Notes: a model not told the origin generated them from the letters alone. Counted from the stretch's first letter, positions 1,623-64,000 are shown. The stretch: 64,000 nt of DNA from Candidatus Staskawiczbacteria bacterium (GCA_041661545.1 JBAZUH010000001.1:672148-736147); one strand, 5' to 3'. Numbers and translations: made by a program.

Positions 1623-2867
1623 ATGTACGATTTACCTAAAATACCAAAGTTTAATTTAAAGAAGTTTAATAAAAAGTTTATAAAAAAAATTAAAAACACA
1701 AAGTTTTGGGGTATTTTGATTATAGTTTCTATGGGTTGCGTCATTGGTTTTTCTGCTGGAACAGTTGCTTTGCATTATTTTCCATTACAAACCCAAGCAT
1801 TTTTACAATATTTTAAGTTACCAGAAAAGTCTATAAAAGTTGAAGAAAAGCCAATTAGTGATTTATATATTTCTAAGGTTGCTTATGAACAAGCTATAAT
1901 TGATGCAGCTAAAAATGTTTCACCATCTGTTGTAAGTATTATCGTTTCTAAAAAATTACCTGAGTACCAAGAGGTTGGTGCCGGATCTGGCTTTATTGTT
2001 ACAGCAGATGGTTTGGTTTTAACAAACAAGCACGTTGTATTAGATAAAAAAGCAGATTATACAGTTGTAACCAATAATGGAAAAAAATATAAAGCTAAAG
2101 TTTTAGCATTAGACCCCGTGCAAGATTTGGCTTTAATAAAAATTACATCCGAAGATGATAACATTTTGTTTCAACCAGTTAAATTGGGTAATTCTTCTGG
2201 CATACAAATAGGGCAAAGCGCAATTGCCATTGGAAATGCCCTAGGAGAATTTTCTAATACAGTTTCTGTTGGAGTTATTTCTGGTCTTAAAAGAACAATT
2301 TCAGCTTCTGATAACACGGGCTCTTTTTCTGAAACCCTAGAAGGAATTATTCAAACAGATGCTGCAATTAACACAGGCAATTCTGGCGGGCCATTATTAA
2401 ATTTAAATGGGGAAGTTATTGGCATTAATACCGCAATGGCAGAGGGGGCAGAAGCCATTGGTTTTGCTATTCCTATTAATATGGCTAAAAGAAGCATAGA
2501 TCAAGTTATAAAAACAAATAAAATTGTGTATCCATTTGTAGGAGTAAGATATGTTTTAATTGATGAAGATATTAAAAAAGAAAAAAAATTATCAGTAGAT
2601 TATGGAGCATTAGTTATAAAAGGAGATAATGGTGAGCCAGCTATAACTAAAGGTTCTCCTGCCCAAAAAGCAGGAATTAAAGAAAAAGACATTCTTTTGC
2701 AAATTAATGGAGAAAAAATTACTCTTGATAACTCGGTTGTGGTAATTCTTCAGAAATATAATGTTGGAGATGAAATTACCATACATCTTTTAAGGCCTGC
2801 CAAATTGGCAGGTACAGCGGGCCAAGAAATAGATATTATTTTAAAATTAGCTGAGCGAGCTCCATAA
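1623..2867 (+). CDS. htrA: HtrA/DegP-family serine protease with N-terminal membrane anchor and C-terminal PDZ domain
   Basis: Catalytic motifs TNKHVV (His), DLALIKI (Asp) and GNSGGPLLN (Ser). PDZ-like 'GSPAQKAGIKEKDILLQINGEKI'. Confidence 0.9.
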   Translation: MYDLPKIPKFNLKKFNKKFIKKIKNTKFWGILIIVSMGCVIGFSAGTVALHYFPLQTQAFLQYFKLPEKSIKVEEKPISDLYISKVAYEQAIIDAAKNVSPSVVSIIVSKKLPEYQEVGAGSGFIVTADGLVLTNKHVVLDKKADYTVVTNNGKKYKAKVLALDPVQDLALIKITSEDDNILFQPVKLGNSSGIQIGQSAIAIGNALGEFSNTVSVGVISGLKRTISASDNTGSFSETLEGIIQTDAAINTGNSGGPLLNLNGEVIGINTAMAEGAEAIGFAIPINMAKRSIDQVIKTNKIVYPFVGVRYVLIDEDIKKEKKLSVDYGALVIKGDNGEPAITKGSPAQKAGIKEKDILLQINGEKITLDNSVVVILQKYNVGDEITIHLLRPAKLAGTAGQEIDIILKLAERAP

Positions 2868-2870
2868 CGG

Positions 2871-2899
2871 TTGACATTATTGTTTGTATTTGATAAATT
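2871..2899 (+). promoter_or_regulatory. Putative sigma70-type promoter (TTGACA-17 nt-TAAATT) directly after htrA, with no ORF behind it
   Basis: Perfect -35 hexamer, 17-nt spacer and a 4/6 -10 hexamer, read by eye. Confidence 0.3.
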
Positions 2900-2940
2900 A
2901 TAAATGTATGAATAAGATTAACTCAATTTACTCAGTTAAA

Positions 2941-2975
2941 TACCGCGAAGCGGTAATTTCGCTTTCTGCGAAATT
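2941..2975 (+). other. Two back-to-back GC-rich hairpins (taccgc-gaa-gcggta; aatttcgc-tttct-gcgaaatt)
   Basis: Perfect 6-bp and 8-bp inverted repeats. Same double-hairpin style as 61790..61820. Confidence 0.7.
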
Positions 2976-3083
2976 ATTTAATAGGGTAAACAGCTGGTAT
3001 TTCTTTTTTAGCCCCTTTGCGAGAGAGGTTGGTTTTGGAGAATTAAAAAAGTAAAAAGAAAAATACTTAATTAATCAAAACAA

Positions 3084-3107
3084 GCTTCTCTCGCGAGAGG
3101 CTTTTTT
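3084..3107 (+). terminator. Rho-independent terminator (gcttctc-tcgc-gagaggc + T6)
   Basis: 7-bp stem with one G-T pair, a tetraloop and a T-run. Lies about 215 nt after the htrA stop. Confidence 0.55.
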
Positions 3108-3159
3108 CGAACGTGCAACATGCACATTAACAACTCAACAAAAAAATGGAGGCTACAAA

Positions 3160-3483
3160 ATGACAACAGATAAAGCAGTACGTTTTGTGCTAGAAGTAAG
3201 GCCAATATTGCAAAAAAGCCACGATTTTGTGGGGAAGCCATCAGAAGGACTATCTTCTGTTCGCGATGGCAAAGATTGGTATCATGTGGATAGTCAAAAT
3301 GTTCCGGCTTATAATCAGCGATATTTATTTGTAGGAGATTTTTCGGGCGGCGTTGCGAAGGTAAGAGATGCATTGGGATATTTTTATATATATCCTGATG
3401 GCAGAGAAGTTTTTTCAGAACGGTTTAATCATTATGATGTAGAGGGGTTAAAGCGAGCGTTAGAAGGTGTAACCAAGGAGTAG
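3160..3483 (+). CDS. WG-repeat (KWG-like beta-repeat) protein, short / possibly a fragment, in a GC-rich islet
   Basis: Two repeats of the pattern 'EGLSSVRDGKDWYHVD' / 'GGVAKVRDALGYFYIYPDGREV'. Strong SD GGAGG sits 7 nt upstream. G+C is clearly above the surroundings. Confidence 0.5.
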   Translation: MTTDKAVRFVLEVRPILQKSHDFVGKPSEGLSSVRDGKDWYHVDSQNVPAYNQRYLFVGDFSGGVAKVRDALGYFYIYPDGREVFSERFNHYDVEGLKRALEGVTKE

Positions 3484-3500
3484 CCATATTATTTAGTAAT

Positions 3501-3532
3501 GCGGGATTCTATCATGACCCCGCTCTTTTTTT
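3501..3532 (+). terminator. Rho-independent terminator after the WG-repeat gene
   Basis: gcggg ... cccgc stem followed by tcTTTTTTT. Confidence 0.55.
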
Positions 3533-3542
3533 GGGTGAGGGG

Positions 3543-3569
3543 TTGTCACTCTTGACTTGAGAGTGCTAT
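3543..3569 (+). promoter_or_regulatory. CIRCE-like inverted repeat (HrcA operator-like) upstream of clpB
   Basis: TTGTCACTC-N9-GAGTGCTAT versus the CIRCE consensus TTAGCACTC-N9-GAGTGCTAA (7/9 and 8/9). Overlaps the -35 of the clpB promoter. Confidence 0.6.
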
Positions 3570-3580
3570 TGATATAAAAT
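3552..3580 (+). promoter_or_regulatory. clpB promoter (TTGACT-17 nt-TAAAAT)
   Basis: Near-consensus hexamers with 17-nt spacing. The -10 ends at 3580, so the ATG at 3581 is unlikely to be the true start. Confidence 0.6.
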
Positions 3581-6337
3581 ATGGGAGATGGTAGAATAAA
3601 ATATAAAAAATATATAAAAACTATGAACGGAGCAAATTTTACAAATAAGGCACAGGATGCGTTAATGCAAGCACAGTCTTTGGCTCAAGAAAAGGGACAA
3701 TCGCAAATTGATGCGTTACATTTATTATCTGTTTTATTAACACAAGAGGGTTCTATTATAATTACAATTTTGCAAAAACTTGGAGTTGACCCTGATGTTT
3801 TAATCAAAAAAGTTGATTTACAAATTTTAAAAATTCCACCAATTGCAACGCAACAGGCATTTGGCCAGTTTTATCTTACACAAGATATGGCCAAGGTTTT
3901 AGACAGAGCTAGGCAGGAAGCAATAAAAATGAATGATGAATTTATTTCAATTGAACATTTATTTTTAGCTTTAGTTGATACAAAATCTGGCGCAAAAGAT
4001 GTTTTAGAAAAAGTTAATTTTTTGTCGGGAAGCCCTTCGGGAATAGATGGGGCCGGCTTAAAAAGTTCAAAACTTGATTATGAGGTGGTTATGAAAGTTT
4101 TGTCTCAAATAAGAGGCGGGCAAAGAATTACCGACCCAGAACCAGAATCAAAATATCAAGTAATTGAAAAATATACTAGAAATTTAACAAATTTAGCTGC
4201 TGCAGGCAAAATTGATCCAATAGTCGGAAGAGACAACGAAGTTAGAAGATTAATGCAAATAATTTCTAGAAGAACTAAGAATAATCCAGTTTTAATTGGA
4301 GAAGCTGGCGTTGGTAAAACAGCTATTGTTGAAGGTTTTGCACAAAAAATTGCAAGAGGAAACGTGCCCGATTTTTTAAAAAATAAAGAAATTATTTCTT
4401 TAGATTTGGGGTCTATAATAGCAGGCACAAAATACAGGGGAGAATTTGAAACAAGAATAAAAGCTTTATTAAAAGAGCTTTCCAGGTCTGCAGGAAAATA
4501 TATTTTGTTTATAGATGAGCTCCACACTTTAGTGGGAGCAGGAGCTGCCGAAGGTGCAATTGACGCTTCAAATCTTTTAAAGCCAGCGTTGGCTAGGGGA
4601 GAGTTGCGGGCTATTGGAGCTACAACTTTAAGAGAATATCAAAAATATATTGAAAAAGACCCAGCTTTAGAAAGAAGATTTCAACCTATTTTTGTTCAAG
4701 AGCCAAGCATCGAAGACGCTACTGCAATGTTGCGTGGCATAAAAGAAAAATATGAAGTTCATCATGGAGTAAAAATAAAAGATTCTGCAATTAAGGCAGC
4801 TGTAGATTTGGCTTCAAGATATATTGCCGACAGGTTTTTACCAGATAAAGCAGTAGATTTAATGGATGAAGCAGCTTCAGCTTTAAGATTAGAAATTGAA
4901 TCTGACCCACAAGAGTTAGAAAAATTTGACGAGGCTATTATGAAGTTAGAAATTGAAAAACAAGCTTTAAAAAAAGAAAAAGGAAGCGAAAGAAGGCTTA
5001 AAGTAATTGCCAGAGAATTGGCCAACTTAAATGAAAAAGCAAAATCATTAAGGTTAAAATGGGGAGCTGAAAAAGAATTAATTAATAAAATTAAAGACAT
5101 AAGAGAAAAAGTAGATAATTTATCTTATCAAACAGAAATTGCACAAAGAGAAGCTGATTTAGAAAAAGTTGCAGAAATAAAATATGGGAAAATTCCAGAA
5201 TTATTAAGAGAACTAGCTGCCACAGAACAAAAATTAATTAAAATACAAAAAGAACATAGGTTCTTAAAAGAAGAAGTTACCGAAGAAGAAGTAGCTCGCG
5301 TTGTTTCACGCTGGACGGGCATTCCTGTTACTCGTTTAATAACCGAAGAAGCTAAAAAATTAGAAACAATGGAAGATACTCTAAATAAAAGAGTAATCGG
5401 CCAACAAGAGGCGATTTCAGCCATTTCAAGGGCTATTAGAAGAGCTAGGGCAGGGATTTCAGAAGAAAATAAACCATTGGGCTCTTTCTTGTTTTTAGGA
5501 CCAACAGGAGTTGGAAAAACCGAAACCGCCAGAGCTTTGGCTGAGTTTTTGTTTGATGACGAAAAGGCAATGATAAGGCTAGATATGTCAGAATATATGG
5601 AGCGTCATACAGTTTCAAAAATTATTGGAAGCCCTCCAGGATATGTTGGTTACGAAGAATCTGGTCAATTAACAGAAAAAGTTAGACGAAGGCCATATTC
5701 AGTGCTTTTGTTAGACGAAGTTGAAAAAGCCCACCCAGATGTGTTTAATATTTTATTGCAAATTTTTGAAGATGGCAGGTTAACAGACTCTAAGGGTAGG
5801 TTAGTATCATTTAAAAATACAATTATTATAATGACATCTAATTTGGGAAGTGACTATATTAACAAAATGTCTTCACTTGGGTTTAATAACAAAGAAGAAT
5901 TAGTTCAAAGAGAAAATATGAGAGAAAAAATCTTTGATACTTTGCGCGACTCATTTAGACCAGAATTTTTAAATAGAATTGATGAAATGGTTATATTCAA
6001 TTATTTGAAAAAAGAGCAAATTAAAACAATTGTTGATTTGGAATTGTCTAAAGTAGAAAAACGTTTAGCCACTAAAGAAATAAAAATTAGTATTTCTGAA
6101 AAAGCCAAAGAACTTTTAGTAAAAGAAGGATTTGATCAAAATTTGGGAGCTCGTCCGCTAAAAAGAGTTATTCAGCGCTTAATTTTAGACCCATTATCAG
6201 TTAAAATTGTGGCTAATGAAATTACCGAAGGCAGTAGGGTATTAATTGATCAGCAAGAAGGAAAAATAGTCTTTGATGCCCCTCGGTTATTACCAAGAAT
6301 GCAAAATAATAGAAAATTAGCTAAAATTAAAAAGTAA
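3581..6337 (+). CDS. clpB: ClpB disaggregase (AAA+ chaperone); true start probably ATG at 3623 ([14 protein letters not shown]...)
   Basis: Clp N-domain repeats. Two Walker A sites ([18 protein letters not shown]), a long coiled-coil middle domain and 'GARPLKR' near the C-terminus. Confidence 0.95.
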
Positions 6338-6348
6338 AAAATAAAAAA

Positions 6349-6374
6349 CCCTCGGAATATTCCGAGGGTTTTTT
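6349..6374 (+). terminator. clpB rho-independent terminator
   Basis: ccctcgga-atat-tccgaggg followed by T6. Confidence 0.9.
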
Positions 6375-6403
6375 AGTTCAAAAACCCAGTTATACAACTG
6401 GGC

Positions 6404-6440
6404 AAGAGTTATCCACAGTTTGTTAAGTGGATTTTTGTTT
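6404..6440 (+). repeat. Direct repeat copy 1 (aagagTTATCCACAgtttgttaagtggatttttgttt)
   Basis: About 37 bp, repeated at 6950..6986 with 3 mismatches. Contains a perfect TTATCCACA 9-mer and an ATCCAC/GTGGAT hairpin followed by T5. Confidence 0.9.
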
Positions 6441-6488
6441 ATAAAAAGATGTAAAATAGAATAATAAAAAATTAGTTCTTTAAAATAT

Positions 6489-6555
6489 TTGGTGGCCGAA
6501 GATGAAATTTAAATTTTTTGTATTAATATTCATAAATTTCATCTTCGGCTACCAA
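6489..6555 (+). other. Long hairpin (23-bp stem with one G-T pair, 21-nt AT loop) immediately 5' of the HNH gene RBS
   Basis: ttggtggccgaagatgaaattta ... taaatttcatcttcggctaccaa. Confidence 0.85.
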
Positions 6556-6573
6556 CAATCAAGGGGGTAACAA

Positions 6574-6885
6574 ATGAGGTTCTTTAAATGCAGGTGGAAG
6601 ATATGCAGGAGAAAAAGATGTGCAAGGTGTCGCACTCGATATAGAATAACCCGCCATCACGTCATTCCTAAAGTGCATTGCAAAGGTAGTAACGAAATCA
6701 TTCATCTTTGCCGATACTGCCACAAGTGTATTGAGACGATAATTCTAACAGAAGAGGTAATTGCTGGGGGTTGCGACGTAGGAGAAAGGTTTAGGCTTCC
6801 AGACGAGCGCTATCGTGAAATTGCACGCCTGTTTGTTAAAAGAGAATACCAGCCAGCCAGCGCACCCGAGCTTACCAGCTGTTAA
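6574..6885 (+). CDS. Small HNH-family endonuclease in a GC-rich cassette
   Basis: 'RHHVIPK...GSNEIIHLCRYCHKCIE' fits the HNH His-Asn-His/Cys-box pattern. N-terminus is Arg/Cys-rich. Strong SD AAGGGGG. Confidence 0.6.
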   Translation: MRFFKCRWKICRRKRCARCRTRYRITRHHVIPKVHCKGSNEIIHLCRYCHKCIETIILTEEVIAGGCDVGERFRLPDERYREIARLFVKREYQPASAPELTSC

Positions 6886-6944: not shown

Positions 6945-6949
6945 GAGGT

Positions 6950-6986
6950 AAGAGTTATCCACAGCTTATTAAGTGGATTTTTATTT
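6950..6986 (+). repeat. Direct repeat copy 2 (aagagTTATCCACAgcttattaagtggatttttatttt)
   Basis: See 6404..6440. The two copies bracket the HNH cassette 546 bp apart. Confidence 0.9.
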
Positions 6987-7138
6987 TTTAAAACAACGTA
7001 TTGGTAAGTGTGACTTTAAATTATTGTAAAAATATTTGGATAATGGTTTAATTAAATAAAAAATGTGCTAATTTTCTTATAGTTAGAAAATTGAATATAA
7101 ATTTTAAAATAAAATAAAAATTAAATAAGTATAAAATC

Positions 7139-7993
7139 ATGAAAGAATATAAAGATTTTAACAATAAACTAAAATTGTTGATTAGTAAGCGGAGAGATTT
7201 AATCGTCAATACGTTATCTAATATATTTACAATGAGATTAATCGGCAATAAGACGCATGGTGATTTGGCCGAAATAGGAATGGCTGAATTTGTTCATCAG
7301 TTTATGTATGACTACGATAGTAAACATGTTGGGAAAGACCTTTTTCGCGCAAAGGAGCATGAAGAAGATATTATGATTATTAATGAAGTTACAAAGTTCC
7401 AATTCCCAGTTAGTTTAAAGGCATATGGGGATGGCCCTTTACAGCTTTCGACAGATAGTGACCAAAAAATGTTTCCATATCTTGAAAAGCAAGGTAAAGA
7501 TATTGTAAACAAGAAAAAAATTAGAGAAATTTTTTCTTCACAGGCATTCTCTGATTTTAATAATATAAATGTTATGCCTCTAATTTATAATGAACAAAAG
7601 AAGCAATGTAATATCATGGTTTTTGATCATGATAAAGCAATAAAAAATACAGAACGTATTTTTTATATAGGTAAAGAAGAAAGTTTTGGTAGTAAAAAAT
7701 CAGGTAAATCTAGAAAGCACCCAATTTTTTTGTTTTTAGATAATAAAAATAATTATATTTGCGAAGTTAGGTATGGTGGAGCAGCGGCGAATGCATTGCA
7801 AAGAGGCCTTTGGACAAATACAAAGCATGCCAGCTCTTATTTTGATAGTATCACGGACGGGTGGATTGATTATTCGCACAATTTAACGCTTGTAAGATTA
7901 TTTAGTCTTGCGCTAAATAGTCGGGAAGAATGTCATAAAGAGGTGAATGTAATCTTACAAAGAGATATAAATAAATTGAATGAAAGAAAATAG
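7139..7993 (+). CDS. Putative type II restriction endonuclease (family not recognised)
   Basis: 284-aa ORF overlapping the downstream adenine methyltransferase by 14 nt. Possible PD-(D/E)xK-like 'EEDIMIINE...VSLKAYG'. The call rests mainly on context. Confidence 0.45.
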   Translation: MKEYKDFNNKLKLLISKRRDLIVNTLSNIFTMRLIGNKTHGDLAEIGMAEFVHQFMYDYDSKHVGKDLFRAKEHEEDIMIINEVTKFQFPVSLKAYGDGPLQLSTDSDQKMFPYLEKQGKDIVNKKKIREIFSSQAFSDFNNINVMPLIYNEQKKQCNIMVFDHDKAIKNTERIFYIGKEESFGSKKSGKSRKHPIFLFLDNKNNYICEVRYGGAAANALQRGLWTNTKHASSYFDSITDGWIDYSHNLTLVRLFSLALNSREECHKEVNVILQRDINKLNERK

Positions 7994-9134
7994 CACGATG
8001 CCAATATTGTCTAATAGAAAAGATTTTTCTGACATAAAAACTCAGGGTATAAAATATGCGGGTTCTAAGCTAAAAATAATTCCTTACATCTTAGAAAGTA
8101 TTAAAGATTTAAATATTGTAACGGTCTTAGACGGATTTAGTGGTTCTACTAGAGTAAGTCAGGCGCTGGCACAAAGGGGTTATGATGTAGTCTCTAATGA
8201 CATCGCCTGCTGGTCGGAAGTATGTGCAAAATGTTTTTTATTACACAAAAAAGATAAAGAATACTATCAAAATATAATCGATGGCCTCAACTCTCTTAAG
8301 GGATATAGGGGTTGGTTTACTGAACATTATGGTGGCGATGAATCAATGAAAGTGAAAATGCCATTTCAAATAAAAAATACAAAAAAATTAGACGCGATAA
8401 GGGATAGAATTGATGAATTAAAGTTGAACGACATTGATAAGGCAGTTATTTTAACAAGTTTGATATTCGCATTAGACTCAGTAGACAGCACTCTTGGACA
8501 TTTTGTATCATATCTTTCTAAATGGTCTAGTCGTTCTTATAATGATTTAGTGCTTAAGGTCCCTGAATTAATAAAAACCAATGGTAAGCACACAGTACTT
8601 AGGGAAGATATTTTTGATGTCATAAAAGATAATACTTTTGATTTAGCATATTTCGACCCACCCTATGGGTCAAATAATGAAAAAATGCCACCAAGTAGAG
8701 TTAGATACTCATCATATTATCATATTTGGACATCAGTTATTAAAAATGACAGACCACCGCTCTTTGGAAAAGTGAATAGAAGAGAAGACACGAGAGATTT
8801 GATTTCGGCTTCTTTGTTCGAAGAATTTAGAAAAAATGAGAAAGGAAATTTTATTGCGATGGAAACAATAAAGAAAATGATTCAATGCACTAATGCAAGA
8901 TATATCTTGCTTTCTTATAGTTCAGGTGGGCGAGCAACTAAGCAGGAGCTTGAGGATATTTTTGCAGAAACAGGGAAAGTTCTTAAAATTATTGAAATAG
9001 ATTATAAAAAAAATATTATGGCTACTATGCGTTGGACGAATAAGTGGATAAACTCAGACGGTAAACATAAAGAGTACCTTTTTTTAATGGAAAAAAACAC
9101 CAGAGCAGCGGACAATTTATTAAGAAATAAATAA
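7980..9134 (+). CDS. N6-adenine DNA methyltransferase (D12/Dam-like alpha class)
   Basis: 'KYAGSKLKIIPYI' (like the Dam WAGGK motif), SAM motif 'LDGFSGSTRV', then the catalytic 'FDPPYG'. The motif order (I before IV) indicates alpha class. Confidence 0.85.
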   Translation: MKENSTMPILSNRKDFSDIKTQGIKYAGSKLKIIPYILESIKDLNIVTVLDGFSGSTRVSQALAQRGYDVVSNDIACWSEVCAKCFLLHKKDKEYYQNIIDGLNSLKGYRGWFTEHYGGDESMKVKMPFQIKNTKKLDAIRDRIDELKLNDIDKAVILTSLIFALDSVDSTLGHFVSYLSKWSSRSYNDLVLKVPELIKTNGKHTVLREDIFDVIKDNTFDLAYFDPPYGSNNEKMPPSRVRYSSYYHIWTSVIKNDRPPLFGKVNRREDTRDLISASLFEEFRKNEKGNFIAMETIKKMIQCTNARYILLSYSSGGRATKQELEDIFAETGKVLKIIEIDYKKNIMATMRWTNKWINSDGKHKEYLFLMEKNTRAADNLLRNK

Positions 9135-9213: not shown

Positions 9214-10167
9214 TTGAAAACAATGGACATTATAGACAAGTTAATAAATAAATTAGTTGGAAGGCATGGCCTTTTTCTTTTGGTTATATTCGCTTCGATT
9301 TCGATGTTACTTGTATCTTGGATAGAATTTTTAGTAAAATTTTATCTTGGTTCATATATCCCAAATATTCAAGACGTTTTACGAGGTGCTTTATTATTAG
9401 TTTTTTGGCTTTTTTTAATTAAAATATGCCAGTGGCTATGGGAAAAAACTATTTTCTTTTTTAAACTAATTAAAAGGTTTATATTAGGAAACAGAATTAT
9501 CTCTGTGCCCGAGGTATCAGAATGGATTTTTCAGGGAAGTTTGAATGTGATAGGTGACTCTTTGGAATTAACCACTTCTAATTCAGGATGTTTAATTAAG
9601 AATTTCTTATATAAAAATTTCTCATTAAATTGCGTTATGAAGATTCCCAATGGGGGTAGGGGGTCGTTAATTTTTCGAGCAAAAGATTTAGAAAATTATC
9701 TAATGATTCAGTTCGAATTAGCTGATACTTCGGACAATGGTACAATAGTCTACGATATAGTGCCCCATATACGCTATATGGGGCACTTCGAAACTTTTAA
9801 AATATATCAACCAGTTTACCCAAATGAAAGACACTTTCCAACACTCGTAAAATACGATAAGATAGGCGGTCTACCAGTGAACCTGAAGGTCCAAAATAGT
9901 GTTGTAAAATTAACAATAGGTATTGAGCGAAAAGAGTTTTATTGGAATATACCGACTCATACAGAGCAAAATATACTCAGCAATATGATCTCGGGGCAAC
10001 AAGAAGCACAACAAAATAAAATAGAATCGCTTACGGGTAGGATAGATCCGCTAGACGGCATACTTGTTCCAAGAATTTGGTTTAGAGGTGGTTACGGGCG
10101 AATTGGTTTTCGCGCATGGGGTTTAGAAAAAATTATTATAAGTGATTTAAAAATAGAACCTATATAA
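9214..10167 (+). CDS. Membrane-anchored protein with a LamG/DUF1080-like (concanavalin-fold) C-terminal domain; likely start ATG 9223
   Basis: Two or three N-terminal TM helices. The C-terminal 'GSLIFRAKD..YLMIQF' and 'GRIGFRAWGLEKIIISDLKIEPI' resemble DUF1080 strand patterns. Weak call. Confidence 0.35.
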   Translation: MKTMDIIDKLINKLVGRHGLFLLVIFASISMLLVSWIEFLVKFYLGSYIPNIQDVLRGALLLVFWLFLIKICQWLWEKTIFFFKLIKRFILGNRIISVPEVSEWIFQGSLNVIGDSLELTTSNSGCLIKNFLYKNFSLNCVMKIPNGGRGSLIFRAKDLENYLMIQFELADTSDNGTIVYDIVPHIRYMGHFETFKIYQPVYPNERHFPTLVKYDKIGGLPVNLKVQNSVVKLTIGIERKEFYWNIPTHTEQNILSNMISGQQEAQQNKIESLTGRIDPLDGILVPRIWFRGGYGRIGFRAWGLEKIIISDLKIEPI

Positions 10168-10363: not shown

Positions 10364-10404
10364 ACCCTTCACCATTTGGGTTATATCACGAAATGGTGAA
10401 GGGT
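10364..10404 (+). other. 14-bp perfect inverted repeat (acccttcaccattt / aaatggtgaagggt) abutting the -35 of the next promoter
   Basis: Read directly from the sequence. Both arms are flanked by TTGAC. Confidence 0.85.
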
Positions 10405-10721: not shown

Positions 10722-10743
10722 AAATTTTCTTCTCTTTGCCATG

Positions 10744-10774
10744 CCCAGAGCGCACGCTTATGGGTTCTTTTTTT
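10744..10774 (+). terminator. Probable terminator of module A (ends gggttcTTTTTTT)
   Basis: Imperfect ccca..tggg stem plus a T-run. The tail 'gggttcttttttt' recurs at 12268..12280. Confidence 0.45.
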
Positions 10775-10784
10775 ACATAGGTAT

Positions 10785-10838
10785 CCCCAAAAATAGTCGC
10801 GTTTTTGACGGCCGTCAAAAACGCGACTATTTTTGGGG
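10785..10838. repeat. 54-bp perfect palindrome P1 (CCCCAAAAATAGTCGCGTTTTTGACGG | CCGTCAAAAACGCGACTATTTTTGGGG)
   Basis: Both 27-nt arms are exact reverse complements. Related imperfect copies lie at 12351..12399 and 55001..55048. Confidence 0.95.
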
Positions 10839-10851
10839 AACATAAACTAAT

Positions 10852-10877
10852 AAAAAAAGAGTCGAGGGTTGCTCGAC
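10852..10877 (-). terminator. Terminator for the minus-strand gene 10911..11303
   Basis: gtcgag-ggttg-ctcgac, with an A-run on + (a T-run on the minus strand). Confidence 0.55.
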
Positions 10878-11793: not shown

Positions 11794-12257
11794 ACATACA
11801 AGGATATTCTTTATGTGAGTTGCTTGGGCACATTGAAGATGGTTTGCGCGCAATTAACCCCAAACAATCGTGCGGATACGCTACCATAATGGTAATCAAT
11901 GACAGCGGCTTCGTTGTCTACAAAACATGTCGTTCAGTGGGGCTTAACACATTGCGTGATGAGGGCAATCACTATAATCGCTCTATAAAACAGGCTGATC
12001 GGCTATTTGCTCATCCCAAGCATGTAAGTAGCTATCAAAGCCGAAACCCGCGGCAGAATCAAGGGGCTGGCGCCATACGGGCTGGCTCGGTTATACTTTC
12101 ATTCAGCGGTTTGACGTCAGAGTTTTGCAACGAGGCTTTGGTGCTGTGGGTGGCCCACGTTGTGCGCTGGTTAAGCGTTGATGAGGCGTTTAATATTGCC
12201 AGATTGAGTGGCAACCCTTTAGTTGACGACAATTTTTTTGCTCTTGCCCGGCGATAG
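11790..12257 (+). CDS. Hypothetical 155-aa protein, GC-rich; faint GlcG/DUF336-like pattern
   Basis: Translationally coupled to the miniprotein. 'GAGAIRAGSVILSFSGLTSEF' loosely recalls the GlcG 'GG.PI..G.VIGAIGVSG' motif. The family call is speculative. Confidence 0.5.
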   Translation: MNIQGYSLCELLGHIEDGLRAINPKQSCGYATIMVINDSGFVVYKTCRSVGLNTLRDEGNHYNRSIKQADRLFAHPKHVSSYQSRNPRQNQGAGAIRAGSVILSFSGLTSEFCNEALVLWVAHVVRWLSVDEAFNIARLSGNPLVDDNFFALARR

Positions 12258-12280
12258 AAATATCGAAGGGTTCTTTTTTT
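12247..12280 (+). terminator. Terminator of module B
   Basis: ccc/ggg and cgata-gaaa-tatcg nested stem, then ttcT7. Confidence 0.55.
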
Positions 12281-12332
12281 AGATAAACATACTGTTAAAT
12301 AAAGTTTTTCCACAGGAAAAATTTTACCATTT

Positions 12333-12440
12333 AGCAGTATAAACGAAAATCCCCAAAAATAGCGTTTTTTGACACAAAAAATGCTACCATTTTTGAGGGA
12401 TAAATAAAAATAGCAGTATAAACGAAAATCCCCTTGGGGT
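12333..12440. repeat. 22-bp direct repeats (agcagtataaacgaaaatcccc at 12333 and 12413) flanking imperfect palindrome P2 (12351..12399); the second copy ends in ccccttgggg
   Basis: Read directly from the sequence. The P2 arms share CCCCAAAAATAG..TTTTTGAC with P1 and AAATGGTA.CATTTTTTG with P3. Confidence 0.85.
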
Positions 12441-15906: not shown

Positions 15907-15947
15907 GCACATATTTATTTTTATAAGATTTGAAAATAAATACGTGC
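15907..15947 (+). other. 14-bp inverted repeat (gcacatatttattt / aaataaatacgtgc, 1 mismatch)
   Basis: Read directly from the sequence. Lies 24 nt after the stop of 15179..15883. Confidence 0.7.
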
Positions 15948-52858: not shown

Positions 52859-52860
52859 TA

Positions 52861-52945
52861 TTCGCTCGGTAAATAATTTTTTCTGCGGGGAGAGCCTCTC
52901 TACGGGGCACCCTCTCCTCTAAAAAATTATTTACCTCGCTTCAAT
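52861..52945 (+). other. Highly structured secD-secF intergenic element (15-bp perfect outer stem ggtaaataatttttt/aaaaaattatttacc, GC-rich inner stems)
   Basis: Read directly from the sequence. Homologous in flanks and architecture to 15010..15125. Confidence 0.8.
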
Positions 52946-54955: not shown

Positions 54956-54964
54956 AATAAAAAA

Positions 54965-54985
54965 ACCGCCGAAAGGCGGTTTTTT
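54965..54985 (+). terminator. Rho-independent terminator
   Basis: accgcc-gaaa-ggcggt followed by T5. Confidence 0.9.
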
Positions 54986-55000
54986 GTTGTTTATTTATAT

Positions 55001-55048
55001 CCCCCCAAATGGTAACATTTTTTGTGTCAAAAAATGTTATTTGGGAGG
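55001..55048. repeat. Imperfect palindrome P3 (CCCCCCAAATGGTAACATTTTTTGTG | TCAAAAAATGTTATTTGGGAGG)
   Basis: The arms are complementary apart from a 3-nt bulge and one mismatch. Same family as P1/P2. Lies at the left edge of the GC-rich islet. Confidence 0.85.
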
Positions 55049-55058
55049 ATGCCTATGC

Positions 55059-55090
55059 AAAAAAAAGCAGTTGATGGTTAGTCAGACTGC
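55059..55090 (-). terminator. Terminator of the minus-strand DHOD-like operon
   Basis: gcagt/actgc stem with an A8 run on + (T8 on the minus strand). Abuts the stop codon. Confidence 0.5.
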
Positions 55091-60122: not shown

Positions 60123-61706
60123 ATGGAATATAAATCTGAAAATAAGGTTTGTCAGAACTGCAAAAAAGACTTTGTTGTAGAGCCTGATGATTTTGCGTTC
60201 TATGAAAAAATGAAAGTGCCCGCACCAACATGGTGCCCAGAATGTCGCATAGTCAGAAGGTTTATGTGGCGCAACGAGCAGAATCTTTTTAGAAGGAAGT
60301 GTCAGACACCGGGGCATAATGAATACCTAATTACAATATTTCATCCAGATGCACCGGTAATAGTTTATGATCAAGAATATTGGTGGTCGGACAAATGGGA
60401 TGTAATGAGCTATGGACGTGATTATGATTTTTCAAAACCATTTTTTGAACAATTTGATGAATTACTCCATTTGGTTCCGCTTCCTCATGTTGCTAATACC
60501 AATTCACCAGATTGTGAATATTGTCATTCACTTCTTAGCTGTAAAGATTGCTATATGACTTTTGTGTCAGATTTTGATGAAAATGTTATGTATACTTCTC
60601 AATCCAATAATATTAAAGATTCTATGGACTGTTTTTGGCTTAGTAACTCTAGCGAAAAATGCTATGAGTTAGTAGACAGTCAAAAATGTTATAATGTTAA
60701 GTTTAGTCGGTTTGCAATTGAATGTAGAGATTCCTCGTATTTATATGATTGCAGAGATTGTTCAAATTGTTTTGCTTGTGTAGGCTTGCGAAGTAAAAAA
60801 TATTATATTTTTAATCAACCATATTCTAAAGAAGAATATTTTAATAAAGTAAAAAATATTTCTGCAGAAGAAGCAATAGAATTTATAAATTCAAAACCAC
60901 GTTCATTTTGCACGTTTAAAAATGCCGTAAATTGTTCTGGAGAAAATATCAACCATTCTAGAAATTGTAAAAATTGTTTTGGAATTAACGAGGGCGAAAA
61001 TTTAAGGTGGGTTCAAGACTCTGTTAAAATAAAAGATGCTTATGATTGTTTTGGTAGTGGATATGGAGATTTAATAAACGATTCTATGAGCATTTTAGGT
61101 TCGCGTATATCTTACAGCAAGCGCGTTTGGTATTCTAATGATGTCCAATATTCTTATTATTGTTACAACTCGTCTGACTTATTTGGGTGTATAGGCCTTA
61201 GAAAAAAGAAGCATTGTATTTTTAATAAACAATATTCAAAGGATGAATATATAAAATTACGAGAAAAAATTATAGAGCATATGAAAAAAACAGAAGAATA
61301 TGGACAATTTTTCCCCTTAGAGCTGTCTCCTTTTGCATACAATGAAACACTTGCTCAAGATTATTTTCCTTTAACTGAAAAAGAAGCAAAAGAAAAAGGA
61401 TATTTATGGAGAGAAAAAATAAAAACAGAATATAATGGTAGCGAAGATAGTGTATTTAAATGCAAAAAGTGTGATAGTTATTTTAAAATTATTGAACGCG
61501 AGCAACAATTTTATGATAAGATGAGTTTGCAAAAACCAGAATATTGTTTTTCCTGCCGTCATAATAAAAGATTATCTTCGAGAACGCCATTTAAATTATG
61601 GAATCGTCAGTGTACAAAATGTAAAAAAGAAATTGAAACCTCTTATGCACCAGATAGGCCAGAAATAGTTTATTGTGAGCAATGTTATAATCAAGAAGTT
61701 GCATAA
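60123..61706 (+). CDS. Cys-rich multi-zinc-ribbon / Cys-ladder repeat protein, paralogue 1
   Basis: N-terminal 'CQNCKKDFVVEPDDFAFYEKMKVPAPTWCPECR'. Two central repeat blocks each end in 'C.GLR.KKY.IFN..YSKEEY'. C-terminal double ribbon '..CKKCDSYFKI...FYDKM..CFSCRH.. CTKCKKEIETSYAPDRPEIVYCEQCY'. Confidence 0.7.
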   Translation: MEYKSENKVCQNCKKDFVVEPDDFAFYEKMKVPAPTWCPECRIVRRFMWRNEQNLFRRKCQTPGHNEYLITIFHPDAPVIVYDQEYWWSDKWDVMSYGRDYDFSKPFFEQFDELLHLVPLPHVANTNSPDCEYCHSLLSCKDCYMTFVSDFDENVMYTSQSNNIKDSMDCFWLSNSSEKCYELVDSQKCYNVKFSRFAIECRDSSYLYDCRDCSNCFACVGLRSKKYYIFNQPYSKEEYFNKVKNISAEEAIEFINSKPRSFCTFKNAVNCSGENINHSRNCKNCFGINEGENLRWVQDSVKIKDAYDCFGSGYGDLINDSMSILGSRISYSKRVWYSNDVQYSYYCYNSSDLFGCIGLRKKKHCIFNKQYSKDEYIKLREKIIEHMKKTEEYGQFFPLELSPFAYNETLAQDYFPLTEKEAKEKGYLWREKIKTEYNGSEDSVFKCKKCDSYFKIIEREQQFYDKMSLQKPEYCFSCRHNKRLSSRTPFKLWNRQCTKCKKEIETSYAPDRPEIVYCEQCYNQEVA

Positions 61707-61751
61707 ATTAGGGTTAGCGTTTAGGGTTTAGTTAAAATTAATAAATAAAAT

Positions 61752-61814
61752 ATGGAATATCAATCAGAGACAAAGGTATGTCAGAATTGTCTGGCTATGC
61801 CAGATCTCGCATAG
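61752..61814 (+). pseudogene. Orphan 5' fragment of a paralogue (MEYQSETKVCQNC...) truncated by a double GC hairpin
   Basis: 13 codons are homologous to the paralogue N-termini. These are followed by tctggc-tat-gccaga and atctcgc-ata-gcgagat hairpins and a stop. Confidence 0.65.
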
Positions 61815-61829
61815 CGAGATAAAAATATT

Positions 61830-63500
61830 ATGGAAAAATCACAAATTAAAATATGTCAGAATTGTAAGAGCGAGTTCGTAATAGAGCTCGATGATTTTGC
61901 ATTTTACGAAAAAATGAAAGTGCCTGCACCAACATTTTGTCCAGAGTGTCGATTTAAAATGCTAGCTATTTGGAGAAATGAAATGTCATTATATTCTAGT
62001 AAAAAATGTGACATGTGTGGTAAAAACATAATAACAATGTATAACCCAAAATCGCCATACAAAGTGTATTGTTACCAATGCTATATGTCTGATTCGTGGG
62101 ATGCACGAGATTATATGAGAGATTATGATTTTTCTCGTCCGTTTTTTGAACAATTTAATAGTCTGCTCAAAGATGTTCCCAAAAAAAACACTTCCATTGA
62201 TGCATCCTCTGGACCAAATATTAATAGTGAATATGCAAATTATGCAGGTGGCATGAAAGATTGTTATATGGTTTTTAATAGCATAGGAGAGCAGATGATG
62301 TATTGCCGAGGAATCCGGGAATCGAAAGAAACAGTAGATTCATATTTTGGAGAACATTTAGAAAAATGTTATGAATGTGTTAATGTTTTTAAATCAAGTG
62401 GTTTAATTTTTGCCAGAAATACCTATAATTCTATGGATTCTGCTTTTGTGATAAACTGCAATGGCTTAAATAATTGTTTTGGTTGCGTCAATTTAAGAAA
62501 CAAATCATATCATTTTATGAATGAATTATTATCTCGAGAAGAATACATTAAAAAAATTGGAGAAATAATGGGTAGTTATTCAAAAATGGAAGAATTTAAA
62601 GAAAAATTTGTAAAATTTGCTTTGACTTTTCCTAGGAAAGAGAATAATAATATTAAAAATGTTAATTCTAATGGAGACTTTTTGTCAGAATGTAAAGACG
62701 TAGATAACAGTTTCGAGGTAATAGGGGCTGAAAATTCTAAGAACATTTTTTCTTCTAGAGCCATTCACAACGCAGATGGGTCTATAGGTTTTGGAACTAA
62801 AAGTGAATTGTTCTTTAATTGTTTAGGATCGGGTTTCTCAAGCAATATTATATGTTCTTGCTCTGTTTCGAGCTCGCATAATATATTATATTCTTTTGGA
62901 TTGATAAATTGTCATGATTGCATGGGTTGTGATAGTTTGAAGAATTCTGAATATTGTATTTTGAATAAACAATATACTAAAGAAGAATACGAAAAATTAA
63001 AAGAAAATATTGTAGGAGAACTTGCTAAACAAGGATTATATGGGCTGATGATTCCGTCAGAGTTTTCTCCTTTTGGCTATAATGAAACTTTGGCTTATGA
63101 TAATATGCCTCTTACCAAAGAAGAGGCGATAGCTCAAGGTTTTCGTTGGGAAGACGATATTCAAATGACAACAGGCAAAGAAACCCTGCAGCTGGGAGAA
63201 ATATCCGATCACATTAAAGATGTAAATAGCACTATAACAAAGGAGATATTAAAATGTATAAGCTGTGAAAGAAATTATAAAATTGCAGAACAAGAGTTAT
63301 CGTTATACAAAAAAATGAATATTCCAATTCCAAGAAAATGTTTTTTTTGTCGTCACCAGGATAGGCTTAGAAGAAGGGGTCCTTATAAATTTTGGAATAG
63401 AAAATGTGATCATTGTGGAAAGGAAATAAATACTAATTATGCTCCCGATAGGCCAGAAATAGTTTATTGTGAAAGCTGTTACAATAACGAGGTAGCGTAG
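61830..63500 (+). CDS. Cys-rich multi-zinc-ribbon / Cys-ladder repeat protein, paralogue 2
   Basis: Same architecture as paralogue 1. The second N-terminal ribbon is intact ('CDMCGKNIITMYNPKSPYKVYCYQCY'). Confidence 0.7.
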   Translation: MEKSQIKICQNCKSEFVIELDDFAFYEKMKVPAPTFCPECRFKMLAIWRNEMSLYSSKKCDMCGKNIITMYNPKSPYKVYCYQCYMSDSWDARDYMRDYDFSRPFFEQFNSLLKDVPKKNTSIDASSGPNINSEYANYAGGMKDCYMVFNSIGEQMMYCRGIRESKETVDSYFGEHLEKCYECVNVFKSSGLIFARNTYNSMDSAFVINCNGLNNCFGCVNLRNKSYHFMNELLSREEYIKKIGEIMGSYSKMEEFKEKFVKFALTFPRKENNNIKNVNSNGDFLSECKDVDNSFEVIGAENSKNIFSSRAIHNADGSIGFGTKSELFFNCLGSGFSSNIICSCSVSSSHNILYSFGLINCHDCMGCDSLKNSEYCILNKQYTKEEYEKLKENIVGELAKQGLYGLMIPSEFSPFGYNETLAYDNMPLTKEEAIAQGFRWEDDIQMTTGKETLQLGEISDHIKDVNSTITKEILKCISCERNYKIAEQELSLYKKMNIPIPRKCFFCRHQDRLRRRGPYKFWNRKCDHCGKEINTNYAPDRPEIVYCESCYNNEVA

Positions 63501-63502
63501 AG

Positions 63503-63530
63503 CCTGTAACCTATAACCTGTAACCCGTAA
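63503..63530 (+). repeat. 4 x 7-bp tandem repeat (cctgtaa cctataa cctgtaa cccgtaa) right after the paralogue 2 stop
   Basis: Read directly from the sequence. A comparable heptad tract (tagggt tagcgtt tagggtt tag) follows the paralogue 1 stop at 61708..61731. Confidence 0.85.
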
Positions 63531-63554
63531 TTTATCGTGTTAATTAAAACATTT

Positions 63555-64000
63555 ATGAATCAAGAAACACATCAATGTCAAAACTGCAAACAAGACTTTA
63601 TTATAGAGCCTGATGATTTTGCGTTCTATGAAAAAATGAAGGTGCCCGCCCCAACATTTTGTTCAGAATGTAGATTGCAGAGAAAATTAGCTTTTCGTAA
63701 CGAAAGAACTTTATACAAAAATATATGCAAAAAATGTAATAAAAGCCTTATTTCAATGTATAGAGAAGGCGGTCCAATGACCGTATATTGTCGAGATTGT
63801 TGGTATTCTGACTCATGGAATCCTATGAGCTATGGGTATGATTATAATTTTTCGCAATCATTTTTTGAACAATTTAAAAAATTGTTTCATGCAGTCCCAG
63901 TGGTAAACTTGTGGACTCCACAGTCAATGAATTCTGAGTATACTAATTTTGCTACAGAAAATAAAAATTGTTATCTTTCGTTTGGCGGGAAGACGTGCGA
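63555..64000 (+). CDS. Cys-rich multi-zinc-ribbon protein, paralogue 3 (5' part, runs off the window)
   Basis: My own translation: MNQETHQCQNCKQDFIIEPDDFAFYEKMKVPAPTFCSECRLQRKLAFRNERTLYKNICKKCNKSLISMYREGGPMTVYCRDCWYSDSWNP... It is absent from the ORF track because no stop falls inside the window. Confidence 0.7.
   Translation, partial: MNQETHQCQNCKQDFIIEPDDFAFYEKMKVPAPTFCSECRLQRKLAFRNERTLYKNICKKCNKSLISMYREGGPMTVYCRDCWYSDSWNPMSYGYDYNFSQSFFEQFKKLFHAVPVVNLWTPQSMNSEYTNFATENKNCYLSFGGKTC

Follow-up and report, generated by a model that had tools for sequence, protein, structure and literature searches.

Long palindromes beside terminators in a Candidatus Staskawiczbacteria bacterium may be copies of a small, strand-specific hairpin insertion element

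A stretch of 64,000 nucleotides from a Candidatus Staskawiczbacteria bacterium, here called the window, contains three long palindromes, P1, P2 and P3, each of them close to the 3' end of a gene. What are these palindromes, and did they arrive together with the GC-rich genes beside them? The original prediction was that they might be cassette-associated recombination sites, conceptually like attC or REP/MITE elements, or what remains of a vehicle that delivered the GC-rich islets. The explanation towards which we lean, with modest confidence, is that they are copies of a REP/MITE-like, non-autonomous hairpin insertion element of about 65 nt, which would insert 3' of T-runs and be handled as a single strand.

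P1 had been described as a perfect palindrome of 54 bp, and its core (10785-10838) is indeed its own reverse complement at 54/54 positions. When the terminal T and A are included the symmetry covers 56 bp (10784-10839, no strand assigned), and a weaker symmetry continues around it out to 94 bp at 81%. The single-stranded DNA folds at -31.2 kcal/mol (z = -11.4). P2 and P3, proposed as imperfect relatives at 12351-12399 and 55001-55048, are long bulged hairpins (z = -7.0 and -5.6), and 0/200 shuffled sequences folded as well as either. P2 (12350-12400, plus strand) is of a TCCCC...GGGA subtype with an ACC bulge on its 3' arm. P3 forms part of an element at 54991-55055 on the minus strand, consisting of TAGGCA, the hairpin at 55000-55049 and TATAAATAA; here the ACC bulge is on the minus-strand 3' arm.

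The motifs said to be shared by these palindromes are present, with CCCCAAAAATAG confined to P1 and P2 in the window. The reverse complement of P2 aligns with P3 over 60 nt without gaps; reverse-complemented P2 and P3 have the centre CATTTTTTGTGTCAAAAAA and a GGT/ACC bulge in common, and the differences between them are paired changes, for instance AGC/GCT versus AAC/GTT. P1 is without the ACC bulge and has a longer centre, GACGGCCGTC. A pattern of left arm, loop and start of the right arm, fitted after the fact to the three sites, has four matches, which are P1 (on both strands), P2 and P3 only, while it matches in 0/100 shuffles. Further, Logan unitigs from SRR18595301, an independent assembly, contain the same sequences, which shows that the palindromes are not peculiar to one assembly. 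Breaks in these unitigs fall in the middle of P1 and of P2 and within P3, as is expected of de Bruijn graphs at palindromes.

All three palindromes of the earlier list are real, but a fourth, degenerate copy and a decayed remnant had been overlooked. The fourth copy, P2b (12281-12339, plus strand), sits between the module B terminator and P2, and consists of a 5' flank, AGATAAACA, and a hairpin at 12290-12339 of a CTGTT...AGCAG subtype, again with the ACC bulge on the 3' arm. P2 adjoins P2b in tandem, with a 10-nt spacer, TAAACGAAAA, between them. The remnant follows P2 at 12413-12440 (plus strand): a second copy of the 22-nt P2b-P2 junction, AGCAGTATAAACGAAAATCCCC, then TTGGGG, that is a 22-nt direct repeat plus TCCCCTTGGGG, the first copy of the junction being at 12335-12356. 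Judged from this arrangement, the remnant may be a second P2b-P2 unit, made by duplication, that has lost its palindromic cores to deletion. In total the window holds four copies and a remnant in 64 kb, at three separate loci and in both orientations.

The setting of the copies is uniform. The palindromes were all said to follow a terminator, and this is borne out: directly before each locus there is a terminator-like site with a GC stem and T7-8. At P1 it is an intrinsic-terminator-like hairpin with T7 (module A terminator, 10743-10774, plus strand) at the 3' end of the gene for a membrane protein of 78 aa; it is a native flank, outside the element, and is homologous to the terminator of module B (GGGTTCTTTTTTT). 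The latter (12246-12280, plus strand) belongs to the 98-aa and 155-aa genes and overlaps a stop codon. At P3 it is the terminator of the DHOD-like gene (55059-55090, minus strand; GCAGT...ACTGC and T8). P1 and P3 lie between convergent genes, so that each also faces a second terminator: that of the 130-aa gene (10852-10877, minus strand; GTCGAGCAACCCTCGAC and T7) at P1, and that of the 342-aa gene (54961-54985, plus strand; CCGCCGAAAGGCGG and T6), which is conserved in relatives, at P3. P2b and P2 lie between co-directional genes. The distances given before, 73 nt from P1 to the 3' end of the 130-aa gene and 42 nt from P3 to the 331-aa gene, are correct, while the supposed DHOD-like operon is a single gene. 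In the window, the 5' flank of the element adjoins the T-run of a gene's terminator, and the ACC strand is without exception the sense strand of that gene.

It had also been claimed that the neighbours are GC-rich. This holds for the 130-aa, 155-aa and 331-aa genes, which have a GC of 0.47-0.50 and a GC3 of 0.44-0.49 in an AT-rich window with a mean ORF GC of 0.33, but only mildly for the 78-aa gene of module A, where the GC is 0.354. An association with GC3-rich genes is seen at all three loci of the window and again at a related locus in another genome (L132). It is probably explained by copies adjoining the terminators of self-contained genes: the GC-rich genes each form a unit complete with a terminator, so copies end up beside them. 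The copies adjoin about five of the roughly ten intergenic intrinsic-terminator-like sites in the window, of which there are so few because most genes are in long operons. Modules A and B are weak paralogues (protein match with E = 6e-6) and their terminators are homologous, so P1 and P2b may descend from one insertion that was copied along with the module.

The statement that the window contains no integrase, RAYT or transposase stands, as no such domain was found in about 60 ORFs scanned; nor is there any HUH enzyme or tyrosine or serine recombinase in the window, and the related loci contain no consistent recombinase or transposase. A homology search finds the 155-aa islet protein to be an ORFan and restricts the homology of the 130-aa protein to a C-terminal zinc-ribbon-like domain of about 50 aa; no mobile-element function is indicated for either.

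Whether a palindrome came with its neighbouring gene can be asked by comparing filled and empty sites. The DHOD-like gene has hundreds of homologues in bacteria of the candidate phyla radiation, and it is syntenic in the loci of five relatives (L139, L140/L141, L142/L143 and L144), with the same neighbours as in the window, the 74-aa/462-aa genes on one side and the convergent 342-aa sigma-r4/HARE-HTH gene on the other. The DHOD-like gene is GC-richer than its neighbours in each relative, and all these loci are without the hairpin. The terminator of the gene and its T-run are conserved in them. In L142 and L144 the convergent terminators simply abut (TTTTTTTGCA|ACAAAAAACC and TTTTTTTTACA|ACAAAAACCC), and compared with them the window has about 65 nt extra at P3, namely TAGGCA, the hairpin and TATAAATAA; the comparison thus places TAGGCA inside the insertion. 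By this alignment it is the palindrome that is the insertion at P3 and not the DHOD-like gene. Being syntenic in relatives that have no hairpin, the gene was not delivered with the palindrome; boundaries of the GC-rich islet and palindrome do not coincide there, and neither the cassette-boundary nor the vehicle-remnant half of the original prediction survives at this site, whereas its REP/MITE-like half agrees with what is seen.

A second comparison gives a similar picture at a different kind of site. In two metagenomic loci (L126 and L136) about 64 nt, the hairpin plus AGGAGG, separate ATATAATTAAAT from the ATG of a small membrane-protein gene of 92-93 aa, while the orthologous gene in L138 has kept the promoter but has neither the hairpin nor the Shine-Dalgarno sequence. 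Read from these alignments, the hairpin also brings the Shine-Dalgarno sequence in such copies. Presence/absence polymorphism at orthologous sites is consequently seen twice, for P3 versus L142/L144 and for L126/L136 versus L138. The genomes compared are divergent, and these filled and empty sites show no clear target-site duplication, at most a possible CA at P3. They also reveal no unambiguous terminal inverted repeat separate from the hairpin; the whole unit is one inverted repeat.

How far does the family extend outside the window? A fairly strict pattern matching the three bulged copies was used to scan 241 million metagenome records. It returned 13 loci, among them eight true homologues that represent seven loci (L131 and L137 are one locus, counted once). 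The homologues align with P2, P2b and P3 without gaps over 60 nt at a mean column identity of 85%. In six contigs (L126, L131/L137, L133, L136 and L138), corresponding to four independent loci, the hairpin, CCTGCTAAATGGTAATATTTTTCCCGTGGAAAAACATTATTTAACAGG, is found in a gene leader, between a TATAAT box and AGGAGG plus ATG. The genes downstream of these leader copies are unrelated and mostly encode small membrane proteins. In all four loci AGGAGG is 8-10 nt before the ATG, half of it within the stem and in the same orientation. The copy in L132 instead resembles P3, including the flank GCATAGGCA; it follows the terminator of a GC-rich gene in a GC-rich islet of two genes beside a tRNA.

Eight copies formed the seed of a covariance model, R1. 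The model recovers them at 73-87 bits, among them P2b (83.3 bits, E = 1.3e-16), P2 (73.1 bits) and P3 (81.5 bits on the minus strand versus 37.2 on the plus strand), all three of which are in the seed alignment; P1, which is outside the seed, is scored on both strands, at 34 and 31 bits. A search with R1 of 298 kb plus 48 kb, comprising the window and 33 other loci, gave no further convincing copy. There are no copies in L120-L125 or L139-L144, and no long palindrome families in L146 or L148. Against Rfam the window gives no match at the gathering threshold, and the related loci yield only tRNAs; sub-threshold matches to mir-548 and the like at permissive E-values reflect a generic long hairpin. 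In viral contigs four patterns gave non-palindromic chance matches or nothing. In genome contigs the loose pattern TCCCCNNAAATN{3,8}TTTTTGN{1,8}CAAAAA matched at least 114 stretches, essentially all by chance and without a palindromic partner. The eight true matches in 241 million metagenome records suggest that the family is not obviously high-copy.

The copies have a common structure. The core is a hairpin of 22 pairs, made up of two 11-pair stems; its apical loop, ACR, is 3 nt long, and its 3' arm has a bulge of three bases, ACC, which 8/9 distinct copies from the various genomes retain. Short conserved flanks adjoin the core, with (A/G)(C/A)ATAGG(C/T)A 5' and TATAAA(C/T) 3' of the hairpin. 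At P1 the 5' flank motif, identified by comparing flanks, is ACATAGGTA (10775-10783, plus strand); its counterparts are GCATAGGCA at P3 and L132, the P2b flank already given, and GAGATAACC in the leader copies. The 3' flank of P1, read from the sequence, is ACATAAACTAAT (10840-10851, plus strand), and it corresponds to TATAAAC at P2b and to the end of the P3 element.

In the gapless alignment of 60 columns, 8/22 pairs have changed on both sides, which exceeds all 500 shuffles, and in slid-partner controls pairing falls to about 50%. It should be added that compensatory changes in a DNA palindrome can also arise by template switching, with no selection on structure. The two strands are not equivalent: the strand with the ACC bulge is 99.4% paired and has 15 G.U cells, while the opposite strand is 91.5% paired and has one. 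Independent wobble-compatible changes number about 9 versus 1 (binomial p about 0.02), a rough count made by hand and unaware of the tree. Predicted RNA folds agree, with -24.5 versus -18.7 kcal/mol for the ACC and the other strand in L131 and -28.2 versus -25.0 in P3. Such an asymmetry points to an element that probably folds, or is recognised, as a single strand, and it argues against a protein-binding site in the duplex. Within the leader copies, however, the ACC strand runs antisense to the gene that follows, and the mRNA-sense strand pairs poorly, so no single simple model explains the strand orientation in the window and in the leader copies together.

How the hairpin insertion element would behave can be outlined as follows. 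It would land just 3' of T-runs, in the window at intrinsic terminators between genes and elsewhere in the AT-rich DNA that separates a -10 box from the start codon. Some lineages have it where others have an empty orthologous site. As its structure appears to be maintained on only one strand, it probably forms, or is recognised, as single-stranded nucleic acid, and it may be mobilised in trans, as an ssDNA hairpin, by an enzyme whose gene lies elsewhere in the genome. Tandem clusters would form and then decay: P2b, P2 and the remnant could represent a cluster made by local duplication, followed by deletion of palindromic cores.

P1 would have a separate origin in a template switch, in which the 5' arm and loop were copied back on themselves and the bulge was lost, leaving a perfect palindrome without a loop. 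The exact symmetry, the missing bulge and the loop bases in the centre of P1 all fit a quasipalindrome template switch. We also considered P1 as a fusion of the 5' arms of two convergent elements; its right flank (ACATAAAC...) matches the 3' flank of the family, so a single element perfected by template switching suffices. Another palindrome, upstream of module A (10364-10404), was examined as the boundary of a half-element and rejected, the similarity (CACCATTTGGG..TATAT) being too short.

The main rival to the insertion element is a functional, cis-acting RNA hairpin, whatever its first origin. We consider it rather unlikely, and the two are not mutually exclusive, as an inserted repeat can be co-opted. 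In the window such a hairpin may be a 3' structure on read-through transcripts, serving as a stabiliser of mRNA 3' ends, as an RNase III substrate or as an insulator of convergent genes; in other genomes it may act in the 5' leader, where it would partly hide the Shine-Dalgarno sequence and control translation. Several observations would agree with this: the strand-asymmetric pairing with its tolerated G.U pairs, the conserved bulge and loop, and the perfect AGGAGG, half in the stem, at the same short distance from the ATG in four independent loci. For REPs, too, a role as RNA elements downstream of genes has been proposed (PMC3733652). Further, between L126 and L136 the element is 92-98% identical and the adjacent coding sequence only 57-78%, which suggests functional constraint rather than a neutral selfish repeat. 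On the other hand, every window copy comes after an intrinsic terminator and would be transcribed by read-through only; the strand that pairs well is the antisense one in leader copies; no Rfam family is matched; and the orthologous sites of relatives function without it. Nor is the long hairpin itself an intrinsic terminator, given that no T-run follows it on either strand.

Recombination at cassette boundaries is a quite improbable alternative. Here the hairpins would be attC-like sites bounding mobile cassettes, and a recombinase encoded elsewhere would assemble the ClpB-RlmN locus. This interval is hypervariable, its content differing in every relative examined, and in the window it contains a type II restriction-modification pair, an HNH-like ORF and ORFans. 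Three of the four window copies fall within it, among self-contained modules each with promoter, Shine-Dalgarno sequence, ORF and terminator, one of them an ORFan. The islet location of the L132 copy beside a tRNA is in keeping with cassettes, and a bulged, strand-specific hairpin resembles a folded attC in principle.

A sister genome adds to this. In L120 there is an unrelated, nearly perfect palindrome family of 54 bp, TTAAGCTCTGTAAAATATTCACGATCGTGAATATTTTACAGAGCTTAA, with four copies in 21 kb, and it punctuates the ClpB-RlmN interval of that genome. One variant palindrome has symmetric changes on both arms, and a further 11 kb of the contig contains none. One L120 copy, however, comes after the core gene RlmN; compared with the window and L121 it is an insertion of about 85 nt. 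The other evidence against cassette sites is that P3 adjoins an ancestral, syntenic gene and is itself the indel, that the leader copies are single insertions into 5' UTRs and not cassette boundaries, and that conserved R''/R' cores are absent, the mid-stem triplets being AGC/GCT, AAC/GTT, AAT/ATT and AAA/TTT. An integrase, an attI and a co-oriented array are all absent from the window.

A bolder version, to which we give similarly little credence, is that the hairpins and the L120 palindromes are recognition sites of an undescribed single-strand-specific recombination system that shuffles modules at ClpB-RlmN in Staskawiczbacteria. If true, this would be an integron-like cassette platform without canonical IntI or attC; the shuffled modules would be terminator-bounded and self-expressed, including ORFans, the HNH-like gene and the restriction-modification pair, with P3 and the leader copies as stray, secondary sites.

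It is very doubtful that the palindromes are double-stranded DNA operators for a dimeric regulator of a regulon. The sequence is palindromic, TTGAC is found at the centre of P1, P2 and P3, and elsewhere the element is directly downstream of a -10 box and upstream of genes for small membrane or metal-binding-like proteins. However, about 50 bp far exceeds typical operators, a 3-nt bulge in one arm and wobble on one strand are not expected for duplex recognition, the window copies are between terminators and away from promoters, and the central motif is not conserved in leader copies (CCACGGG). A promoter-like match in P1, TTGACG-17-TATTTT, was likewise discarded, as the other copies have not kept it.

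Chance similarity or an assembly artefact is hardly credible: libraries and assemblies can produce perfect palindromes, for instance as fold-back chimeras, and Logan unitigs end at the palindrome centres, but the pattern is absent from the shuffles, homologues occur in independent metagenomes, P1 has different and unique flanks on its two sides within a 738-kb contig, and the same arms are in the independent assembly, where breaks are to be expected.

Genomes of the candidate phyla radiation are very small and usually treated as poor in repeats and mobile DNA. The present comparison shows a conserved, strand-specific hairpin insertion element common to several Parcubacteria genomes. Small palindromic repeats thus do invade these genomes too, reshape their intergenic regions, stack behind terminators and cluster in tandem, and in some genomes genes that otherwise seem leaderless receive a hairpin and a Shine-Dalgarno sequence ahead of them. 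The palindromes of L120 are a second, unrelated family at the same kind of site in a sister genome. A caution also follows: a GC-rich islet may stand beside such a palindrome without having been imported together with it. If an enzyme recognising the bulged hairpin exists, the element is a handle for finding it, and alignment A6 and model R1 are directly usable for a census of the family.

Among known systems the closest in location are REPs, which are found downstream of genes and between convergent ORFs, form species-specific families, carry an unpaired tag, GTAG or CGTC, at one end of their palindrome, and are thought to be recognised as single-stranded hairpins (PMC3733652). The present element is, like REPs and REPINs, a short, imperfect, intergenic palindrome downstream of genes, between convergent or unidirectional ORFs, lineage-specific and sometimes clustered in tandem. 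Unlike them, it has no GTAG or CGTC beside the stem, and it is larger, with a hairpin of about 50 nt in a unit of 65 nt versus 20-40 bp for a REP. Copy numbers of REP/REPIN are tens to hundreds per genome, whereas here they appear low (the four copies and remnant of the window). REP/REPIN are mobilised by RAYT, a Y1 HUH enzyme whose gene is usually REP-flanked, and there is no RAYT in the window or the related loci. The host, a small-genome lineage of Parcubacteria within the candidate phyla radiation, also differs from REP hosts; a full-text literature search found no paper that pairs Parcubacteria with "repetitive extragenic palindromic".

The attC sites of integrons are similar in being imperfect palindromes at gene 3' ends that fold as single strands, with extrahelical bases marking the strand, in being homogeneous within a genome, and in their association with ORFan genes. 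Single-strand folding with extrahelical bases is indeed found here, yet it is not specific to attC but common to other hairpin-recognising systems. In place of R''/R' cores (RYYYAAC / GTTRRRY) at the stem base, and of L boxes, the element has TCCCC/GGGGA or CCTGYT/AGCAGG at its base, and AAC/GTT occurs mid-stem in P3 and L132 only. IntI, attI and Pc are missing, the copies do not form a co-oriented array, and P3 and the leader copies are simple insertions beside resident genes.

Correia elements of Neisseria are small, non-autonomous intergenic insertions, polymorphic for presence or absence, that form hairpins in transcripts and can donate expression signals. The element described here resembles these MITEs in its intergenic presence/absence insertion and in donating a signal, the Shine-Dalgarno sequence in leader copies. 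It differs in being essentially one hairpin, without unambiguous separate terminal inverted repeats around an internal segment, in having no clear target-site duplication, in being about half the size, and in that no parent insertion sequence was identified. The subterminal hairpins of IS200/IS605 are strand-specific and imperfect, with one or more extrahelical bases; insertion occurs 3' of a short sequence, with no target-site duplication. A strand-specific bulged hairpin and insertion 3' of a short sequence are shared features, but our element has one hairpin per unit without separate left and right ends, no tnpA or tnpB nearby, and as target motif a T-run, nothing more defined.

Perfecting of quasipalindromes by template switching is established (PMC7202029), and P1 is like its products in symmetry, bulge loss and loop bases (TTTTTGAC and GG / CC and GTCAAAAA); this process accounts for the form of P1 only, not for the origin or spread of the family. 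TIGR arrays consist of many tandem, alternating repeats of 8-12 nt with 9-nt spacers beside a Tas gene with a Nop domain (PMC12045711). A TIGR-Tas array was rejected, as here there are at most two to three tandem units at a period of about 60 nt, with no dual-repeat structure, and no ORF scanned matches the Nop domain in Pfam. Taken together, the element is probably a small palindromic insertion element of a known kind, notable mainly for its host lineage, its strand-specific bulged structure and its placement of a Shine-Dalgarno sequence and a hairpin before genes.

The long palindromes of the hairpin family, an insertion element of about 65 nt, leave their mark on assemblies. Logan unitigs of SRR18595301 break off at these copies: within P3 (window 55001-55048), and precisely at the midpoint of P1 (10785-10838) and of P2 (12351-12399). 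One unitig, L001, stops in this way at one end, and another, L145, at both ends. Palindromes of the P1/P2/P3 type fragment de Bruijn assemblies, and they may be under-represented within short contigs.

A related Staskawiczbacteria genome (locus L120) carries a palindrome family of its own, unrelated to that of the window. It is a nearly perfect palindrome of 54 bp with the centre CGATCG, present in four copies (L120 3780-3833, 4388-4443, 9456-9511 and 11050-11107). All four lie just 3' of a gene end, one of them after the core gene RlmN, and in one variant copy both arms have changed symmetrically. A further 11 kb of this contig (L142) lacks the palindrome.

A motif found 3' of two of these palindromes, GTTATCCACAG... 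(L120 4436-4470 and about 9505-9525), also occurs in a pair of 47-bp direct repeats in the window (6401-6447 and 6947-6993; 87% identical to each other). In both repeats a T-run comes after a small hairpin that includes a perfect DnaA-box-like TTATCCACA, and the pair brackets a GC-rich ORF of 103 aa (6574-6885) with an HNH-like motif, for which the Pfam HNH match is weak (E = 0.1). The repeats look like either a second terminator-associated repeat family or the duplicated target of a mobile HNH gene. Directly upstream of the Shine-Dalgarno sequence of this ORF there is a 23-nt inverted repeat (6489-6555; 96% complementary, 21-nt spacer), which looks like an operator around its promoter.

Three other hairpins or palindromes are seen in the window. 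Just upstream of module A, the gene for a 78-aa membrane protein before P1, ACCCTTCACCATTT / AAATGGTGAAGGGT (10364-10404; 13-nt spacer) overlaps TTGAC boxes. CACCATTTGGG..TATAT occurs both in this palindrome and in the family's 3' arm and flank, and the palindrome may be either a decayed half-copy of the family or an operator. Upstream of a gene of 612-630 aa, the hairpin GCACATATTTATTTT...AAAATAAATACGTGC is kept, with the same gene downstream, both in the window (15907-15947) and in a related genome (L121 13515-13555); this conserved structure probably serves in regulation or as a terminator. The 86-nt hairpin between SecD and SecF (52859-52944) has a GC-rich inner stem inside AT-rich outer arms (GGTAAATAATTTTTT / AAAAAATTATTTACC); it scores weakly (E = 0.34) against R1, the covariance model built from eight family copies, and seems unrelated to the family.

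Two further genes at 7139-9134, in the hypervariable ClpB-RlmN interval, encode a D12-class N6-adenine methyltransferase and a type II restriction enzyme, the latter recognised by PADLOC as REase_II (E = 4e-110). Elsewhere in the window, long diverged direct repeats were detected at 60123-63900. Here a gene for a TraG/TrwB-like coupling protein is followed downstream by paralogues in tandem, one of 527 aa, one of 556 aa and a third that starts near 63558, whose products carry treble-clef zinc fingers at the C-terminus.

Two metagenome loci show what surrounds family copies in other genomes. At L132 the two genes of a GC-rich islet (2700-5200; GC 0.52-0.55, with a contig GC3 of about 0.2) are separated by a family hairpin; one of them encodes a 541-aa protein rich in Pro, Thr, Ser and Gly, and the islet has a tRNA gene at its boundary. 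At L131, one copy located between a -10 box and an ATG has three ORFs beside it (4251-6873): one of 380 aa that resembles a reverse transcriptase, a small one with the look of an Avd-like four-helix bundle, and one of 251 aa. Judged by eye only, this gene set resembles a diversity-generating retroelement, for which it is a candidate.
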